Assembly: GCA_024654565.1 (NCBI GenBank) | Contig: JANLHM010000005.1 | Coordinates: forward strand, 9,239 to 73,238 | Direction: 5' to 3' | Source of the DNA: Nanobdellota archaeon | Lineage (GTDB): Archaea; Nanobdellota; Nanobdellia; Pacearchaeales; GW2011-AR1 | Length of the DNA: 64,000 nucleotides | In this document: in pieces, positions 3,001 to 64,000 of the stretch | Layout of the letters: the number at the start of each line of letters is the position of its first letter | Position numbering within the stretch: position 1 is the stretch's first letter | The notes under the pieces: model-generated | What the model saw: the letters and a program-made list of their open reading frames with translations, nothing else | The model's database searches: none | What the model was told of the DNA's origin: nothing | Position numbers and translations under genes: made by a program

Positions 3001-5110
3001 TCATTTCCTTTCCTGTTTCAACACTAGACCCCTCTAACTTTGAGATTAATTGTTGAACTTGTGTTGTTGGTTTTTGATTGATGAAGTTTCCTTCACTAAC
3101 TGTAACTGTTGTTCCATCCATCCAATTAATTCTGTCAGCAGACCAAAGCCATTTGACATTATACTTGAAATAAATCTCTCCTCCACTACCTATAGCGTTA
3201 CTAATTGAATAAATTTGCTCTCCTTCAGATTGTAAGTTAAACAAAGGCTCAAGGTAAATTGTATCCCCCTTTAACATTTTTATTGGTTCATCAATTGTAA
3301 CTCCATCTTTTCTTACAAGTATTTCTATTCCGTACTCCTCATGCAGTGGAATTTGAATTCCCTCAAAAGAAATCTGTTTATAATCTCCATTTATTAAAAA
3401 TGTTTTTGAAGAAATTCCGTCGTTAAAGTATGCAGGAATTCCGTCACAAGGTAAAGTCTCCAAATTTGAATTTGGGTAGTTTGATTTAAATAAATCACAA
3501 TACTTTTTCAGGTCTTCCATTTGGCCAAGTTCTAGAGACAAATCAATTGCTTCCTTTAGTGCTTTTTCCCCTAAGAAATATTCTGAACCATCGGGATAAA
3601 CTTCACTTGCAAAGTTGTCTTTAATTTTTTGATAGTCCTTTACAGCACTTCCATAGTATCCACTTAAAGTCTCGTTTCCAAACTTCATGTTTGTTCCAAC
3701 ACCAAAACTTATAATTTCAACTTGTGTTCCAAATACTTTTCTTGGACTTTTATATTCAATTATTTCATAGTTATTCCCGTCAAAAAGCCAGTCTGTAAAT
3801 CCAAGAAAAGCTCCAAAAGCAATTTTTAAGTAATCTGAAGCTGCTTCTGGGTGAAGTATTTTAATTTCGGTACCTCTTGCAGTAGACTTTAAAGTTGCGT
3901 CATCAAGTTTTTTATTTTCTGGAACTGCTCCTGGAACAGTCACTAAACCAATTAGTGAATTTTCTAAATTGTTTTTATTTTTTTGTGTTCCCACATAACC
4001 TAAGTAAACATTTTTGTCCCCGTCATCATTAAGGTATAACCAGTCACCAGCTTTGTATTCTTTTGTGACATTGTTGATACTAAGGTTTATTGTTGGTTCA
4101 ATTCTTAATACAAATGACTCTCTTCCTTTTTCATCACTTAAACAGGATAATTTTACAGTTTGTCTTAACCCTTCTTTTTCAGGGTCATCCGTAATGCTAC
4201 ACTTATCATCCAAAAATGTTTCTCCTCTTTTAACTTCAAAAACTTCTGAATTTACTTTTAAAACTGCACGAGTGTCTGCACCTTCAATTCCATCAAGCCT
4301 TAAGTAAGAAGAAGCAAAGCATCCAAATCCAGGAAGAAAAAATGATGAAGAAGTTTCTCCTATTTCCATATTTCTTGTGAGGATCTTTTCCTTTTCGACA
4401 GTTCCGAGGTTTCCAAGTGACCTGTCATAAACTCCTGAATAAATAGAAACTGTTGCATAATTGTCCCCCACTTCATCAGCTCTTAAGTAACCCATATTGT
4501 TAAAAAAGGCATACTGACCTTGACGCTCATCAAATTCAGCGTCGCTCATTAATGGGAGGTAAAGAGTTCTATCAACTGAACCAAAAGCGTCAATTGCACT
4601 GTACCTTATTCTTGCTTTCAAACTTCCTGAAACAAAGTCAGGTATTGTTGACTCAAGAGGATTTTTTTCAAGGTAAATAACAGCGTAACCAATGTCACTC
4701 CATCCTGCACCTGTAAGTTGTCTGTCAAGCCCTAGAGCAGGGTATGTTGGTAAAAATGCAATTGTTGAAACTTCATCCGGGTAATCCCCCCCAAAAGATA
4801 TTGAATCAATTGCAACAATTTTTACAGCCGGGTTTATTTTAAAAGCCTGAAGTTTACAAAAAACAGGAGTATCTTGTTCCTCTAAAATGTCACTTCTAAC
4901 TACAGGCGGGCTACAACCTCCCGGAGCAATCTGAATAATAAAATCTTGTCCAGTCTCACACATCCCACTATTAATCTCAAGCTCTTGAACTTCTGAACCT
5001 AAAAAAGAGCCTGTTCTTGAGTCAATAAACTTTTCTGAAACAGCGTATGAAGAAGCAAAGCCAAGAAAAACTGTTAAAACTACAAAAACTAAAAACAATT
5101 TTTTAGTCAT
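1..5110 (-). CDS. giant secreted/cell-surface protein, partial (1,703 codons in window; C-terminus lies beyond the left edge)
   Basis: Minus-strand frame opens with ATG at 5110 (MTKKLFLVFVVLTVFLGFASSYAVSEKF.., Sec-type signal) and stays open to position 2 (last residues ..GTPNQRWVEVGYC). It is missing from the ORF track only because it has no stop in the window; any in-frame stop would have produced a listed ORF. The ATG overlaps the TGA of the upstream gene (ATGA, 5107-5110). No family recognised; the distal third is Cys-dense. Confidence 0.8.
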   Translation of the reverse strand, partial: MTKKLFLVFVVLTVFLGFASSYAVSEKFIDSRTGSFLGSEVQELEINSGMCETGQDFIIQIAPGGCSPPVVRSDILEEQDTPVFCKLQAFKINPAVKIVAIDSISFGGDYPDEVSTIAFLPTYPALGLDRQLTGAGWSDIGYAVIYLEKNPLESTIPDFVSGSLKARIRYSAIDAFGSVDRTLYLPLMSDAEFDERQGQYAFFNNMGYLRADEVGDNYATVSIYSGVYDRSLGNLGTVEKEKILTRNMEIGETSSSFFLPGFGCFASSYLRLDGIEGADTRAVLKVNSEVFEVKRGETFLDDKCSITDDPEKEGLRQTVKLSCLSDEKGRESFVLRIEPTINLSINNVTKEYKAGDWLYLNDDGDKNVYLGYVGTQKNKNNLENSLIGLVTVPGAVPENKKLDDATLKSTARGTEIKILHPEAASDYLKIAFGAFLGFTDWLFDGNNYEIIEYKSPRKVFGTQVEIISFGVGTNMKFGNETLSGYYGSAVKDYQKIKDNFASEVYPDGSEYFLGEKALKEAIDLSLELGQMEDLKKYCDLFKSNYPNSNLETLPCDGIPAYFNDGISSKTFLINGDYKQISFEGIQIPLHEEYGIEILVRKDGVTIDEPIKMLKGDTIYLEPLFNLQSEGEQIYSISNAIGSGGEIYFKYNVKWLWSADRINWMDGTTVTVSEGNFINQKPTTQVQQLISKLEGSSVETGKEMILKASGKVEDQEFIRLNEINDQESANINLHLKNRSAFSSIGAFLGSPNRNLELNSPYNIEGSEYVFTITKINFKRVAKVSIHTQIKESSEVNFSFNIGIEKRLIQLSPDQIKSQIEETKALTNKLESISNTLGTVVDTMKDVCMGTGAVLTLKNLIFNSGTQSLARTQVMNGEKGWYQFCKDKVREGVYSSNEACLFENSNAIETQVEEMSEIMSQQSENFESLENLKGVTNEGGFLGNDVVNQEKLIENYAPQVLGGLPSEVVNPDNSLEKINLTKVKDSLTLDRFKDGVYTLEDARNIELYSKLVSKSPSDTTYQKRLYTALYSLQVNSDNRVKLNEAASTDNLNPNEVTVLTVGKETKSSPYSGKLARDFTTKPFAGEFISTTPIEKIVTTEGKVYYAVLEEKVLGTLNIVRDSAGLVIYSESGVSRASQETLPVEFSQLYFKRYDANSYETPIKDPEIKYYETEPYKGLPAVVPFDVDNGWYVYIPQTISVTQTRAYDQSARVNNFWLCNAGSNGVVEYSPFGQDEICQLVNLGTGQPYNQFPGLEDSEATNLVRKAVSAVETASRAYKNGVSQVDVNRDGKRINVGSPAVDLPTTQCTDVMSPTDCQILFNACDPVICPSSRCDFGGDFPVRDVIQSGVIGSVALCLPNWNEGIYVPVCLTGVKAGLDGFISVTKSYQSCLETSLNEGKTVGICDEIYSIYGCELIWRTALPIVQLTIPKLDTLIFGGGSKGGGEYIGGIQGALENAESSVDFFTQNYAISSYDAFKARSQEEVGTAVCKNFISVAFPQYAGALNVLSQSDSPPQFTANFEAIPFSSVTNPPQAHYKVFFHIFAGNNAGAYYQVYLKTDGSSFYRDISPIRTVDSGYIAVGGYETETIDFTAPEGYKELCVRVNNQEECGFGSVTTDFALDYLKEKYLQSEANTTDIKTQEECTSGGPNLYNLLGLNAQEGFSDLIDPAVYNDGIVRVCATENPGSQSDGSFGTPNQRWVEVGYC

Positions 5111-8866: not shown

Positions 8867-8938
8867 GCCTGCATAGCTCAGTGGTAGAGCAACTCACTTG
8901 TAATGAGTAGGTCGGGAGTTCAACTCTCTCTGCAGGCT
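8867..8938 (+). tRNA. tRNA-Thr (anticodon UGU)
   Basis: Hand-folded cloverleaf: GCCTGCA/TGCAGGC acceptor, GCTC/GAGC D stem, ACTCA-CTTGTAA-TGAGT anticodon arm, GGGAG-TTCAACT-CTCTC T arm. No encoded CCA. Confidence 0.9.
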
Positions 8939-49465: not shown

Positions 49466-49538
49466 TGGGGCTGCCCGGATTTGAACCGGGGTCGTCAGGT
49501 CCCAAACCTGAAAGGCTACCAGGCTACCCCACAGCCCC
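49466..49538 (-). tRNA. tRNA-Pro (anticodon UGG)
   Basis: The reverse complement GGGGCTGTGGGGTAGCCTGGTAGCCTTTCAGGTTTGGGACCTGACGACCCCGGTTCAAATCCGGGCAGCCCCA folds into a cloverleaf with anticodon loop TTTGGGA. Confidence 0.9.
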
Positions 49539-59505: not shown

Positions 59506-60489
59506 ATGAGTGGTGAAAATAAAGTTCTTGAGACTACAAAATTAATAATTGAAAATCCTAAATATGTTTTTATAAATAATAAAAATGTTGAAGAACTTGC
59601 AGAAAAGTGGTCAAAAGAAAATTTAGAAATTCCTGGCTGGGAAATGCCGGTATACCTTTCTGGAAAAACGGAAGAAGTTATAGACTCTTTTTTTCTTGGG
59701 GATTCAATAAATTTCGCATATACTGATTTTGACACTGGAGAAAAATGGTCAAGTGAATATAAAGGAAAAGAATGGAAAGGAGCTTTTGGGATGTGGGCTT
59801 CATTAAAAAAAGCGATAGAAGAAGGAATGCCCATTCTTGACGGGAATTACTTAAAAGAAATATCTGAAAAAGAGATGAGAAAAATCTTTGAAGGAAACTT
59901 TGAAATCCCGATGTTCAATGAAAGATTAAATATTTTTAGGGAAATTGGGAATGTTTTAAGTGAAAAATATGACGGTCATTTTTATAATTTGATTGAAGAA
60001 TCTAATGGAAAACTTTTCAGCAATGGAAAAGGAATTGTTGAAAAATTAACTTCGGATTTTCCTTCCTTTGATGATTCTGTGGTTTACAAAGGGAAAAAAG
60101 TAAGGTTTGACAAAAGAGCTCAGCTTGCTCCGGGAACTTTATATGGAAGATTTCGTGCACAGGGTGAAACTTTATTTTGGGATGTTGATGAATTGACAGT
60201 CTTTTCAGATTACGTTTTACCAAAAGGACTTAGGGATTTGAAAATTTTGACTTATGAAAAATCTTTAGAAGAAAAAGTTGATAATCAAAATCTAATTGAA
60301 GCTGCGAGTCTTGAAGAACTTGAAATAAGAGCTTCAACAATTCACGCAGCAAAAAGAATTCAGGATAAAATAAATGAATACAGAAAAGGTGAAAATCCGG
60401 TTAACGCTCTTCACATTGATTACAAACTTTGGGCTGAATCAAGAGTCAAACCAGGATTTCATCATTTGACAAAAACTATTGCTTATTGA
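59506..60489 (+). CDS. queuosine salvage protein (DUF2419/Qng1-like), tentative
   Basis: 327 aa. ..DSINFAYTDF.., ..FDKRAQLAPGTLYGRF.. and ..LTVFSDYVLPKGLRDLKIL.. resemble conserved DUF2419 blocks as I remember them. Confidence 0.5.
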   Translation: MSGENKVLETTKLIIENPKYVFINNKNVEELAEKWSKENLEIPGWEMPVYLSGKTEEVIDSFFLGDSINFAYTDFDTGEKWSSEYKGKEWKGAFGMWASLKKAIEEGMPILDGNYLKEISEKEMRKIFEGNFEIPMFNERLNIFREIGNVLSEKYDGHFYNLIEESNGKLFSNGKGIVEKLTSDFPSFDDSVVYKGKKVRFDKRAQLAPGTLYGRFRAQGETLFWDVDELTVFSDYVLPKGLRDLKILTYEKSLEEKVDNQNLIEAASLEELEIRASTIHAAKRIQDKINEYRKGENPVNALHIDYKLWAESRVKPGFHHLTKTIAY

Positions 60490-61545
60490 TAATGATTTTT
60501 ACACCAACTTTCAATTTGTTCATAAATCCTCTTTTAGTTTCTTCTTTCTTTAAAAAAATTATCAAAATATCAACAAAAGATAAGTAGTGGAACACTTGCA
60601 AAAGAAAAAATATCATTTGAAGCTTTTAGTGGCTCTATGCTGAAATTCTCGCCGAAGCTTGAATCTTACACAAGAGCTCTATCGACGTCATCTTATTTGA
60701 CGGCTTTTGTTATCTCGTTTTGCGGATGGCTTCGAGCTTAGATGCATTCAGCTCTTATCCATTCAGTGCGTAGCTATGCGGCCTGCCATGTGACAACCGC
60801 TCACCAGAGGCACCCAAGTACCGTTCCTCTCGTACTAGATACTTGTTCCACTCAGACAACGACACACCTAGTAGATATCATACAAACTGTCTCGCGACGT
60901 TCTTAACCCAGCTAACGATCCCTTTTAATGCGTGAACTCCGACACCCTTGGCCGCTTCTGCACGGCCAGGATAGGGAGAGCCGACAGCGAAATACCAAAC
61001 CGCCCCGTCAATACGGACTATCGGGGGCGACCAGCTTATTACCCTTGGGGTAACTTTTCTATCAGACACGGCATCTATTAAAAATGCACGTGGGTTCACT
61101 AGGCCCTACTTTCGTATCTGCATTTCTTGCTTTTCAAAATACAGTTAGACAGACTTTTGCCCTTGCACTCATCCCTAGATTTCCAAGCTAGGTGAGTCTG
61201 TCTTTGGGTCCACCCGATATCTTTTCGGATGGGCACCGCCCCAGTCAAACTGCCCGCCTGTTGCTGTCCTCATAAAGAGTAAGCAATCTTAGCAAAAATG
61301 GGTAGTATTACAAGTTTGCTCCATCGCCACCAAAATGACGACTTCGACGCTCCTACCTATGCTATGCGTTTTTGATAAAATCACAACAACAAGTTGCAGT
61401 AAAGTTCCACAAGGTCTCCGCTTCCCACTAGGCGTCTCCGGTCTGTGCACCGGAAATATATTTTCAGAGGATTCTAACCAGGGACAGTAACAACCTCGTT
61501 AAACCATTCATGCACGTCACCATTCAGATGACAAGGCATTACGCT

Positions 61546-62286
61546 CAATTGTGTTATTCTGAATTTTAAAATAAAATTCAACTCTTTATGTCGCCATAAA
61601 GATCGGAGTACATCTTCACAAAATTAATTTGTGTCTAGCGTATACTCTCTGAGGATTCTAGATATTTTAGATTTGGTTTACGATTCATTTTTGAAATAAG
61701 TTTTGCGATTTCATCAAGTCCTTCTTTTGACAAATGTTTTTTATTATTCATCAAATTTATTACTTCAGAAAAGATTTTAAAATCTTTTTTCTTTGAAGTT
61801 TGAAGAGGATTTTCATTAAAAAATTTAATAATTTTATTTAAATTCTCTAAACCTCTTGTTCTAAATTCTTTCCTTGTTCCATGTTCATCTGTTCTATTAA
61901 TTTTTACATCTCCAAAACCAAAATAATCTTTGATTTTGTATAAAACAGCTTCATCTTTTTCATGTTGAACAATTCTAAATTCAGGTAGAACTTGCCATCC
62001 TAACTTCATTCCAGAAATTCGGTTTATGGATATATGAAAACATCCTTCGCCGTCTGTAAAACCAGAAATCCATGAACCATCTAGTCTTTCCTGCTGATTG
62101 TCCGCACTCATCTAATTTTCACGCGAACCAACTATAAAAATAATAGTTGTCGTTGTATAGTGAGATTCTCGGATGTTCCAGCATATAGCTAAATTTTCTC
62201 ATTTATTCGGTTTAATTTTTTTGTTTACCTTGACCCCTGAGCATTTTAATTTAATTAAAATGTAAGGCAGTTCAGTTTTCTGTTCA
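61546..62286 (-). mobile_element. group I-type intron (741 nt) in 23S rRNA carrying a homing endonuclease ORF
   Basis: The exon sequence ..CUCUUAAGGU | AGCGUAAUGCC.. is contiguous in other 23S rRNAs. The 5' exon ends in U and the insert ends in G. Insert nt 19-24, GCCUUA, pairs with the exon end UAAGGU, including the U-G wobble. Confidence 0.75.
61635..62111 (-). CDS. LAGLIDADG homing endonuclease (single-motif, I-CreI-like size)
   Basis: 158 aa with the motif WISGFTDGEGCF near the N-terminus. Lies entirely inside the rRNA insert. Confidence 0.9.
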   Translation of the reverse strand: MSADNQQERLDGSWISGFTDGEGCFHISINRISGMKLGWQVLPEFRIVQHEKDEAVLYKIKDYFGFGDVKINRTDEHGTRKEFRTRGLENLNKIIKFFNENPLQTSKKKDFKIFSEVINLMNNKKHLSKEGLDEIAKLISKMNRKPNLKYLESSESIR

Positions 62287-62319
<33 letters not shown>

Positions 62320-64000
62320 GATGGACCTTAGCTCCCTTGAAAAAGAGTTTGAGACACCACCACTGGGCAGGTCTCACCACGTATACAAGTCCTTTCGGAT
62401 TAGCACGTGGCTACGTTTTTGGTAAACAGTCGGGCCGTCCTTGTTACTTAGATCTACTAATGCGATTTACATTTCTGAAAACACAAAAATAGACATCCCT
62501 TCAGCCGAAGCTACAGGACTAACTTGCCGAATTCCCTTGATTAGTTTTATCCTACACGTCTTGGCCTTCTAAGCCAGAGCACCAGTGTCGGTTGTGGGTA
62601 CAGTTAATCAGTCCAAGAATATATTTTTTTCACTGGCTCCTGGAATCAGCGACGAATCCAAAAATTCTTTGCAGTCTTAGGATTACCCTCGTGCAATTTC
62701 TTTTTAAAATGCTCTCTCGAGCACTCGCTTATCCGGAAGCTAATATATTATGTAAGAACTAATTAGTACAGGAATATTAACCTGTCATCCATCGTCGTAT
62801 TCAGTTAAGGTACGACTTAGGTCCTGACTAACCCTTGGCTAACGTATATTGCCAAGGAAACCTTGCTCTTTCGACGTTTTCTATTCTCAAGAAAATCACA
62901 TCTTACTATTACCAGGATTCTCATTCGTTCCCGCTCCAACCTTTCTCTCGAAAAATCTTCTACGCAGAAACGACGCCTACTTACCAGAACACTCGTTCTC
63001 GAGTGCCTCCAAAGTATCGGTATCATGCTTAGCCCCGTCCATTTTCAGGGCTCTGAACCTCAATGGGTGAGCTGTTACGCTTTCTTTAAATGATAGCTGC
63101 TTCTGAGCTTACATCCCCGGTGTCTCAGGTTCAAAACACCTTTTGATACACTTAGCATGAATTTTGGGACCTTAACTTTGGTCTCCATTGTTTTGGTCTT
63201 GCGAATGTATCTTACATACACACGCTGTTTCTCAACTTACACAGTTAACAGATTCTGAGTTGGAAAAAATTCCGTAAGCATTAGCCCCTGCAAATTTTAT
63301 CCGTACTATACGCCGTTAACAAATTAGGTGAGACTATACGAAGGCATATTTCAGTAGGAACCAGCCATTGCCAGATTAGATAGGCTTTTCACCCCTATAC
63401 ACAAGTCATTCGAGTACATGTCCATAACACCGGTTCGGCCCTCCATCCTCCTTTCGGAAGACTTCAGCCTGCTCATATATAGATCATCTGGCTTCAGGTC
63501 TTACCCCTGTGACTTAAACGCATTTTCATACTTGCTTTCGCTTTGGTTACGGAATATAAATTCCTTAGCCTCGCCACAAAGGCAAACTCCCTGGCCCGTT
63601 TTTCAAAACGTACGCTGCAACCCTTTGTCTTACGACGTAAGAGCAGCAGCCAACTGTAACTGTCAGATTTCAAGTCTTTTAACTCTCTGTTAAGAGTACT
63701 TTTCAGCTTTCCCTCGCGGTACTAGTGCACTATCGGACTTTGGTTATATTTAGGGTTAGCACTTAATCGTGCTATATTCAGACGCCTAATTCAAGACGCC
63801 CTACTCATTTGAAGAACTTCATATTGTTTTCTTCTACGGGACTCTCACCCTCTAAGGTCTCACGTTCCAGTAAGTTTGAATCAACAACTTAGAAATTTAC
63901 CTTCACCACATCTCTATCCACTTTTCAATGGAAGATTCAGTTTGCCCTCTACCCTTTTCGCTCTCTGCTAATAAGAGTATCACTTTTGTTTTCTTTTCCT

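Follow-up and report, generated by a model that had tools for sequence, protein, structure and literature searches.

The 23S rRNA gene in the 64-kb stretch of archaeal DNA that we analyzed (64,000 nt of contig JANLHM010000005.1 from a Nanobdellota archaeon; hereafter, the window) is interrupted by a 741-nt insert at positions 61546 to 62286 of the minus strand. We read this insert, with a probability of about 0.92, as a mobile IB4-like group I intron that carries a gene for a single-motif, homodimer-type LAGLIDADG homing endonuclease in the loop of helix P6a. The IB4-like family occupies position 1931 of the large-subunit (LSU) rRNA, site L1931, in many DPANN archaea, candidate phyla radiation (CPR) bacteria, other bacteria, and organelles. 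An initial annotation of the window had proposed a group I intron here, and this reading is supported by a covarying ribozyme core, a P1 helix with an internal guide sequence (IGS), a terminal G, and the lack of a bulge-helix-bulge (BHB) motif. Unless stated otherwise, all coordinates below refer to the minus strand.

The archaeal LSU gene extends from 60606 to 64000 (Rfam LSU_rRNA_archaea RF02540; 1876.8 bits), its 5' end being cut by the window edge. The 5' exon ends in ...GGUAACUAUGACCCUCUUAAGGU at 62287, the insert runs from UGAACAG at 62286 to ...CACAAUUG at 61546, and the 3' exon starts with AGCGUAAUGCCUUGUC at 61545. This boundary cannot be shifted, because the final U of the exon differs from the final G of the insert and the first U of the insert differs from the first A of the 3' exon. 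In the Rfam alignment, the insert sits between model columns ...UAAgGU and AGCguA, and the structure line of the model puts the site in the single-stranded stretch directly 3' of helix 69. The numbering follows the Escherichia coli K-12 rrlB standard (2904 nt), which reads GGTCCTAAGGT followed by AGCGAAATTCC (3' side starting AGCG), so that the last T before the junction is position 1931; an O157 rrl copy (2898 nt) gave 1925 and was set aside. Sequence, model alignment, and rrlB numbering thus agree with the initial annotation, which had placed a 741-nt insert after U1931, with an exon-final U and an insert-final G (61546). With the 741 nt subtracted, the extent of the rRNA match does not allow for a second large insertion. 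The intron-less junction would read ...CUCUUAAGGU joined to AGCGUAAUGCC, the intron-less L1931 site being ACCCTCTTAAGGTAGCGTAATGCCTTG.

To place the insert among its relatives, we relied on a scan for relatives of its endonuclease with one genome per species, which yielded 71 loci. Loci L001 to L020 come from DPANN and other archaea (53 to 82% protein identity); L002, although labeled as the bacterium Scalindua, is very likely a mis-binned copy of Woesearchaeota L001. The rest are mostly from CPR, Omnitrophota, and other bacteria; L063 (Micrarchaeota), L066 (Nanoarchaeota), and L070 (Woesearchaeota) are archaeal. Bacterial relatives at L1931 share the whole core, with endonuclease identities of 44 to 49%. 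The sequences flanking the open reading frame (ORF) show a single scaffold, which in its 5' half consists of the IGS, an optional P2, AAAAUCUGGCUAUAUGCUGGAAAAUCUGAGUAUCUCANNNUAC, a variable hairpin, and GUGAAAAUNNNAUGAGUGCAGACAAUCAGCAGGAAAG ahead of the ORF. After the ORF, the 3' half consists of UAGAAUCCUCAGAGACUAUACGCCAGA, a hairpin, AAGAUAUAGUCCGA, a stem-GCGA-stem element, and finally UAACANNNUG. Among these segments are the classical elements R (UCAGAGACUAUA) and S (AAGAUAUAGUCC).

We then aligned 38 cores with the ORF body removed (the window and 37 relatives, six of them naturally ORF-less; alignment A1) and wrote the helices of the window onto the alignment. As controls, the 3' partners were slid by 1 to 3 columns, and 500 shuffles were made. 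The multiple alignment was preferred to a global pairwise comparison of the window core with L070, which mis-registered the 5' part at the P2/P2.1 insert. Across A1, the 57 pairs were 95.3% paired, compared with 30.9 to 41.0% in the slid controls, and 39 of the 57 had changed in both partners. Covariation scored 0.473 (0.06 to 0.10 when slid), and none of the 500 shuffles reached any of five measures. A profile built from A1 without the window matched the 64-kb window only at 62197 to 62071 (E = 1e-25) and 61673 to 61579 (E = 4.6e-16). Of the 74 columns in which the other 37 sequences are at least 90% conserved, the window follows 69, and its five deviations all fall at paired positions that still pair: a P5 U-A changed to C-G (two columns), a P7 U-A changed to U·G (one column), and a P7 C-G changed to G-C (two columns), the last being unique to the window, as all 37 relatives have C-G. 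Judged from these sequences, such compensated deviations are most readily understood as the product of selection on a working ribozyme.

The fold begins with P1, in which the last six exon nucleotides, UAAGGU (62287 to 62292), pair with the internal guide GCCUUA (62263 to 62268; intron nt 19 to 24), with a U·G wobble at the splice site. It is followed by the P2 hairpin CAUUUUAA/UUAAAAUG (62242 to 62262; nt 25 to 45), which shows compensatory change in six of seven predicted pairs among five sequences, and by a P2.1 domain closed by CUCA/UGAG (62198 to 62241; nt 46 to 89). P2.1 is found only in a subfamily made up of the window, L001, L004, L007, and L008, in which its closing pairs read, by eye, CUCA/UGAG, CUCC/GGAG, CUCU/AGAG, and CUUC/GAAG. 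RNAalifold applied to the 5' extension recovered P2 and missed P2.1, so the latter rests on the by-eye covariation in five sequences. P4 pairs UGCUGG (62178 to 62183; nt 104 to 109), which is followed by an A-rich J4/5, with UCAGCA (62092 to 62097; nt 190 to 195); it is invariant, 100% paired, and in agreement with the Rfam consensus. P5 pairs UCCG (62170 to 62173; nt 114 to 117) with CGGA (62101 to 62104; nt 183 to 186; two of four pairs compensatory), and P5a pairs CUCACUA (62158 to 62164; nt 123 to 129) with UAG(A)UGAG (62107 to 62114; nt 173 to 180; seven of seven). Between the P5a strands lies P5b, a variable hairpin closed by UAC/GUG (62120 to 62157; nt 130 to 167; helix 5 of the alignment). 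P6, GGA/UCC (62089 to 62091 and 61653 to 61655; nt 196 to 198 and 632 to 634), is 100% paired, and P6a, CUAGAU/AUCUAG (62079 to 62084 and 61658 to 61663; nt 203 to 208 and 624 to 629), has compensatory changes in all six pairs.

The second half of the core contains the P3/P7 pseudoknot. The strands of P3, UUUAGC (62188 to 62193; nt 94 to 99) and GCUAGA (61634 to 61639; nt 648 to 653), are 99.6% paired in A1, with five of six pairs compensatory. The 5' strand of P7, G(A)GAGUAUA with its bulged A (61641 to 61649; nt 638 to 646), is preceded by UCA as J6/7, and its 3' strand, UGUACUCC (61605 to 61612; nt 675 to 682), is preceded by AAGA as J8/7; P7 is 98.4% paired, with compensatory changes in four of eight pairs of the 38-sequence alignment. 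The G-C pair that follows the bulged A, the predicted guanosine site, is the same in all 38 sequences (columns 193/257). P8, CACAAA/UUUGUG (61617 to 61633; nt 654 to 670), is compensatory in six of six pairs, and the P9 hairpin, UCUUUAUG/CAUAAAGA (61583 to 61602; nt 685 to 704), in seven of eight, with a GCGA (GNRA) tetraloop at 61591 to 61594. A P9.1 hairpin, UGAAUUUU/AAAAUUCA (61560 to 61580; nt 707 to 727), is drawn from the single window sequence, and the intron ends in its terminal (omega) G at 61546 (nt 741). The folding of P3 to P9 suggested in the initial annotation yielded a complete core from P1 to P9.1. Three other pairings were discarded: a P7 of GAGUGC/GUACUC that placed the ORF between P3' and P8, because the comparative data give GAGUAUA/UGUACUC downstream of the ORF body; a helix UCUGAG/CUCAGA, whose mismatches are uncompensated in L006 and L012; and a small hairpin formed by GAGUAUCUC, which fails in relatives.

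The guide tracks the insertion site across relatives, which bears out the P1 with a U·G wobble described initially. At L1931, the exon end TAAGGT faces the guide GCCTTA, and in three loci with a variant L1931 exon (L048, L049, and L056), TATGGT faces GCCATA. The same correspondence holds at L2593 (GACAGT with GCTGTC in about 20 loci), at L1923 (GACCCT with GGGGTC and GAGGCT with GGCCTC), and at L1911 (GGCCGT with GCGGCU), the splice-site pair always being U·G. The scaffold, including the MSADNQQER-coding segment that forms P5', P4', and P6, is present at L2593 (L032, L034 to L036, L039 to L043, L045, L046, L050 to L056, L060, and L071), L1923 (L005, L047, L058, L061, L063, and L066), and L1911 (L023 and L062), in bacteria and archaea, and the related endonucleases are 32 to 45% identical. 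In two loci, L1923 and L1931 introns stand in tandem, with an 8-nt micro-exon, CTTAAGGT, between them (L005, about 2378 to 2386; L066, about 3010 to 3018), and the CPR loci L025, L028, L048, and L056 also have an intron directly upstream.

From these elements we propose the following mechanism. The RNA folds into P1, formed by exon UAAGGU and guide GCCUUA with U·G at the splice site, the extra P2/P2.1 domain, the stack of P4, P5, P5a, P5b, P6, and P6a, the pseudoknot of P3 and P7 together with P8, and the GNRA-capped P9, an arrangement that the comparison shows or strongly supports. By analogy with group I chemistry in general, exogenous guanosine bound at the P7 G-C pair beside the bulged A would attack after U1931. 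The terminal G would then replace the guanosine, and the freed 3'-OH of the exon would attack the 3' splice site, so that the rRNA is ligated and the intron released. As in other members of its family, the 158-amino-acid (aa) protein is expected to dimerize and to cut intron-less 23S genes around L1931, and repair would copy the intron into the cut gene (homing).

Since the host is archaeal, we also considered a classical archaeal BHB intron with a LAGLIDADG gene, like the hosts of I-DmoI, I-PorI, and I-Vdi141I, which would be removed by splicing endonuclease and ligase. Archaeal rRNA introns of the BHB type often carry LAGLIDADG genes, and the window ORF is distantly matched by 3e54, an enzyme from an archaeal intron (E = 1.2e-9). 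A BHB motif consists of two 3-nt bulges that hold the splice sites, a 4-bp helix between them, and flanking helices. In the canonical register, however, the central helix of the window junctions has one of four pairs and the intron-side flanking helix has none of four, and no shifted register has two contiguous flanking pairs. The duplex between the two junctions has an energy of -6.7 kcal/mol, compared with -7.7 ± 2.5 kcal/mol in shuffles. These tests uphold the absence of BHB pairing stated in the initial annotation. With no BHB to be drawn and a complete covarying group I core in its place, a BHB intron is hardly credible.

A second alternative is that the insert derives from a group I intron and is no longer spliced, being either retained in mature 23S rRNA or removed without ligation to leave a fragmented rRNA. 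Several observations count in favor of this view and against a splicing group I intron. The related L1931 intron of Simkania is reportedly unspliced, to go by the title of a 1999 report by Everett. P10 has at most 2 bp in the window copy; several relatives carry AUUACG, which pairs by eye with exon CGUAAU as P10. The organism of the window is present in none of the public runs searched: a query of insert plus exons matched the conserved exons alone (word share, 0.16 to 0.23), intron-only words reached at most 0.11, and the neighboring protein genes were found in none. Splicing in the window organism is predicted by comparison. A separate point against the main reading as a whole is that the generic Rfam model Intron_gpI (RF00028; gathering score, 50 bits) gave no match to the whole insert at E ≤ 10, no match to its 3' half, and a 3'-truncated match of 15.6 bits (E = 0.07) to its 5' half (62076 to 62266; model positions 1 to 112).

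The weak 5'-half match is nevertheless correctly placed, and the same model detects ORF-less members of the family over its full length. The ORF-less intron of L021 (1577 to 1846) scores 87.5 bits (E = 3e-22), with P3, P4, P6, P8, and P9 placed by Rfam as we assigned them, and the ORF-less L070 intron scores 82.6 bits. RF00028 is known to find no archaeal group I intron, whereas subtype models (IB4 and IA3) find 39 (Nawrocki, Jones & Eddy 2018, PMC6125680). Because ORF-less relatives match and the same blind spot was seen in that study, we consider the miss on the window uninformative. The covariance model search suggested in the initial annotation, where failure to find a group I core was to speak against an intron, is thus formally negative for the window copy itself, but strongly positive for its ORF-less relatives. 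The generic model evidently misses ORF-bearing members of this intron family.

Loss of splicing is made improbable by the state of the element: all core positions conserved in the family are kept, every deviation is compensated, and the ORF of the endonuclease is undamaged. Word depth over the exons was 1e4 to 1e5 in three sediment metatranscriptomes (contigs of at least 90% identity), whereas related intron pieces had depths of 0 to 11, and exon-exon joints were present in the contigs. This pattern is consistent with splicing but does not prove it, because the communities are mixed and the contigs derive from mixed relatives; the contrast in depth is only suggestive. One soil run (X1; type unconfirmed, probably DNA) contained the exact intron-less junction, joining 61545 to 62287 with the 741 nt skipped, at a depth of 12. 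Alleles without the intron therefore exist and can serve as homing targets. The same soil run holds low-depth contigs of related intron sequence, so that intron-plus and intron-minus alleles coexist in the environment.

The insert contains an ORF of 158 codons for amino acids (61635 to 62111; intron nt 176 to 652), whose body, at about 61664 to 62078, is an insertion in loop L6a. The single-motif LAGLIDADG assignment made initially was confirmed by Pfam, with LAGLIDADG_1 (PF00961) matching residues 15 to 117 in a single stretch (96.9 bits; E = 1.5e-27; cutoff, 23.1). The best matches in the PDB were I-PanMI (E = 1.6e-51), followed by I-AabMI and the I-OnuI family; these best solved relatives are individual domains of two-domain enzymes. 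The single-domain enzyme 5gkk (170 aa) matched at E = 5e-35. The ISGFTDGEG motif of the ORF aligns with ISGFVDGEG of I-PanMI, and the acidic catalytic position is therefore kept. With one LAGLIDADG_1 domain, an acidic residue ending the motif, and a length within the class range of about 150 to 180 aa, the ORF fits the single-motif class. It is predicted to encode a homodimer-type homing endonuclease, with dimerization and cleavage expected from its family. Metagenomes hold a very large number of such proteins: in a set of 5.8 billion proteins, 2877 matched at E ≤ 1e-3, and the best 120 were 75 to 88% identical.

The ORF had been described as lying between a 175-nt 5' part and an 89-nt 3' part of the RNA. 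The arithmetic of these flanks stands, but the ORF overlaps the ribozyme on both sides. Its AUG (62111 to 62109) lies within the 3' strand of P5a, and its UAG stop lies inside P3'. Codons 1 to 12 encode P5', J5/4, P4' (codons 5 to 7), P6, and P6a, and the last nine or so codons plus the stop encode P6a', P6', J6/7, P7, and P3'. The terminal stretches of the ORF thus double as protein code and ribozyme, and its body alone is the L6a insertion. The ORF-less Woesearchaeota intron of L070 (1389 to 1702; 314 nt; L1931) retains AUGAGUGCAGAUAAUCAGCAGGAAAGACUAGAUAUAUUUUUUUAUCUAGAAUCCUCAGAGAC, which corresponds to the first 12 or so and last 9 or so codons of the endonuclease joined through a 7-nt loop into a simple P6a hairpin. 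Their presence in L070 shows that these codons form part of the ribozyme (from P5a' to P6a and from P6a' to P7); only the gene body has been inserted or lost, in L6a. It is the ribozyme, and not the protein, that dictates the conserved termini of the endonuclease, MSADNQQERL... and ...LESSE(T/S)IR.

The start of the ORF has a further feature. The conserved 3' side of P5b (62120 to 62122 in the window, and also in relatives) reads (G)GUGAAAAU, 8 to 9 nt upstream of the AUG. It resembles a Shine-Dalgarno sequence and may serve as one. In the folded ribozyme, this sequence and the AUG are both engaged in base pairs, a hint that translation of the endonuclease competes with folding of the ribozyme.

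The exons of the window are 84 to 89% identical to the LSU genes of the Woesearchaeota metagenome-assembled genomes L007, L008, and L001, and the host is a Woesearchaeota-like DPANN archaeon. The intron is most similar to those of L001 (83%) and of the Pacearchaeota locus L004 (82%; exons only 77 to 80%). With L007 and L008, the two loci closest to the window in their exons, intron identity is only 78%. Based on these pairwise identities, the incongruence hints at lateral homing. We also considered that the intron of another organism might have entered this contig during assembly or binning, by way of the conserved flanking rRNA. Regions of rRNA are prone to chimeric assembly, and one related contig, L002 (VSDH01000063.1; 2.3 kb), is binned as "Candidatus Scalindua sediminis" while carrying an archaeal LSU fragment. 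In both intron and flanks, L002 matches over the same stretch and with the same identity as Woesearchaeota L001, and it is very likely mis-binned. For the window, such an artifact is highly unlikely: the closest introns (78 to 83%) occupy the same site in woesearchaeotal and pacearchaeotal LSU genes, whose exons are also the closest, and the exons are continuous on both sides. The biology of the element would be unchanged either way.

A broader scenario can be put forward only tentatively, and we consider it somewhat doubtful as a whole. One scaffold may have acquired new targets, at least four 23S sites in all (L1911, L1923, L1931, and L2593), through changes in nothing but the guide and the endonuclease specificity, while the first 12 or so and last 9 or so endonuclease codons stayed fixed as P5a' to P6a and P6a' to P3', and it may have moved between DPANN archaea and CPR or other bacteria. 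The window copy would be recently mobile; it is closer to the introns of Pacearchaeota than the rRNA of the window is to Pacearchaeota rRNA. The AUG buried in P5a would make translation and ribozyme folding mutually exclusive and so could act as a switch between homing and splicing.

Group I introns in archaeal rRNA were called uncommon in the initial annotation, which is out of date: 39 archaeal group I introns have been listed, more than 12 of them of the IB4 type at LSU/1931 (entries IB4.2 to IB4.6,.10,.12,.14,.15,.22 to.25, and.27), in Woesearchaeota, Pacearchaeota, Micrarchaeota, Nanohaloarchaeota, Thaumarchaeota, and Euryarchaeota (PMC6125680). Several of these introns are 681 to 743 nt long and carry LAGLIDADG genes (PMC6125680). 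The window intron is like them in host gene, position, host groups, size class, LAGLIDADG ORF, and a manually identifiable P7, and by this analogy we give it the putative label IB4. It differs from them in being a new sequence (the best endonuclease match in the set of 5.8 billion proteins is 88% identical, and the closest intron among those fetched 83%) and in having the extra P2/P2.1 domain, which only a few relatives share. Bacterial and organellar L1931 introns measure 654 to 700 nt and encode single-motif endonucleases of 143 to 167 aa, whose ORFs extend from a peripheral loop into the core of the ribozyme (Haugen 2007, PMC1995217). They resemble the window intron in site, size, single-motif endonuclease, complex P5 region, and an ORF that enters the core, but they belong to another host domain and were described without P2, whereas the window has P2 and P2.1.

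In CPR bacteria, group I introns with single-domain LAGLIDADG_1 genes interrupt 23S rRNA at 1917, 1931, 1952, 2593, and other positions, and one of the enzymes, I-ShaI, cuts its own insertion site and dimerizes (PMC11270868, 2024). The single-domain LAGLIDADG_1 gene is common to these introns and the window, and the CPR loci that we fetched carry the same ribozyme scaffold; their hosts are bacterial. Archaeal BHB introns (I-DmoI, I-PorI, and I-Vdi141I) also reside in domains IV/V of archaeal 23S rRNA and encode LAGLIDADG homing endonucleases, but they are spliced by a protein endonuclease acting on the BHB motif, in contrast to the ribozyme core and missing BHB of the window.

As for the surroundings of the intron, an opposite-strand, protein-coding ORF (59506 to 60489; 327 aa) follows the end of the LSU gene at 60606, and no 5S gene comes after the latter. 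Neither a 16S nor a 5S gene was found anywhere in the 64-kb window, so that the rRNA genes seem not to be linked to one another. The window has two intron-less tRNA genes, tRNA-Thr(TGT) at 8867 to 8938 (plus strand) and tRNA-Pro(TGG) at 49466 to 49538 (minus strand), and its G+C content of about 29 to 41% throughout is typical of DPANN genomes.

The element is a new sequence of a kind already described in 2018; the identification is correct but ordinary and opens no new question. For annotation, it means that the true 23S rRNA sequence of this archaeon emerges only once the 741 nt are taken out, and that the 158-aa ORF is not a cellular gene but that of an intron-encoded homing endonuclease. 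For the family, it adds one more well-resolved DPANN group I intron, with helix-by-helix coordinates and comparative support.

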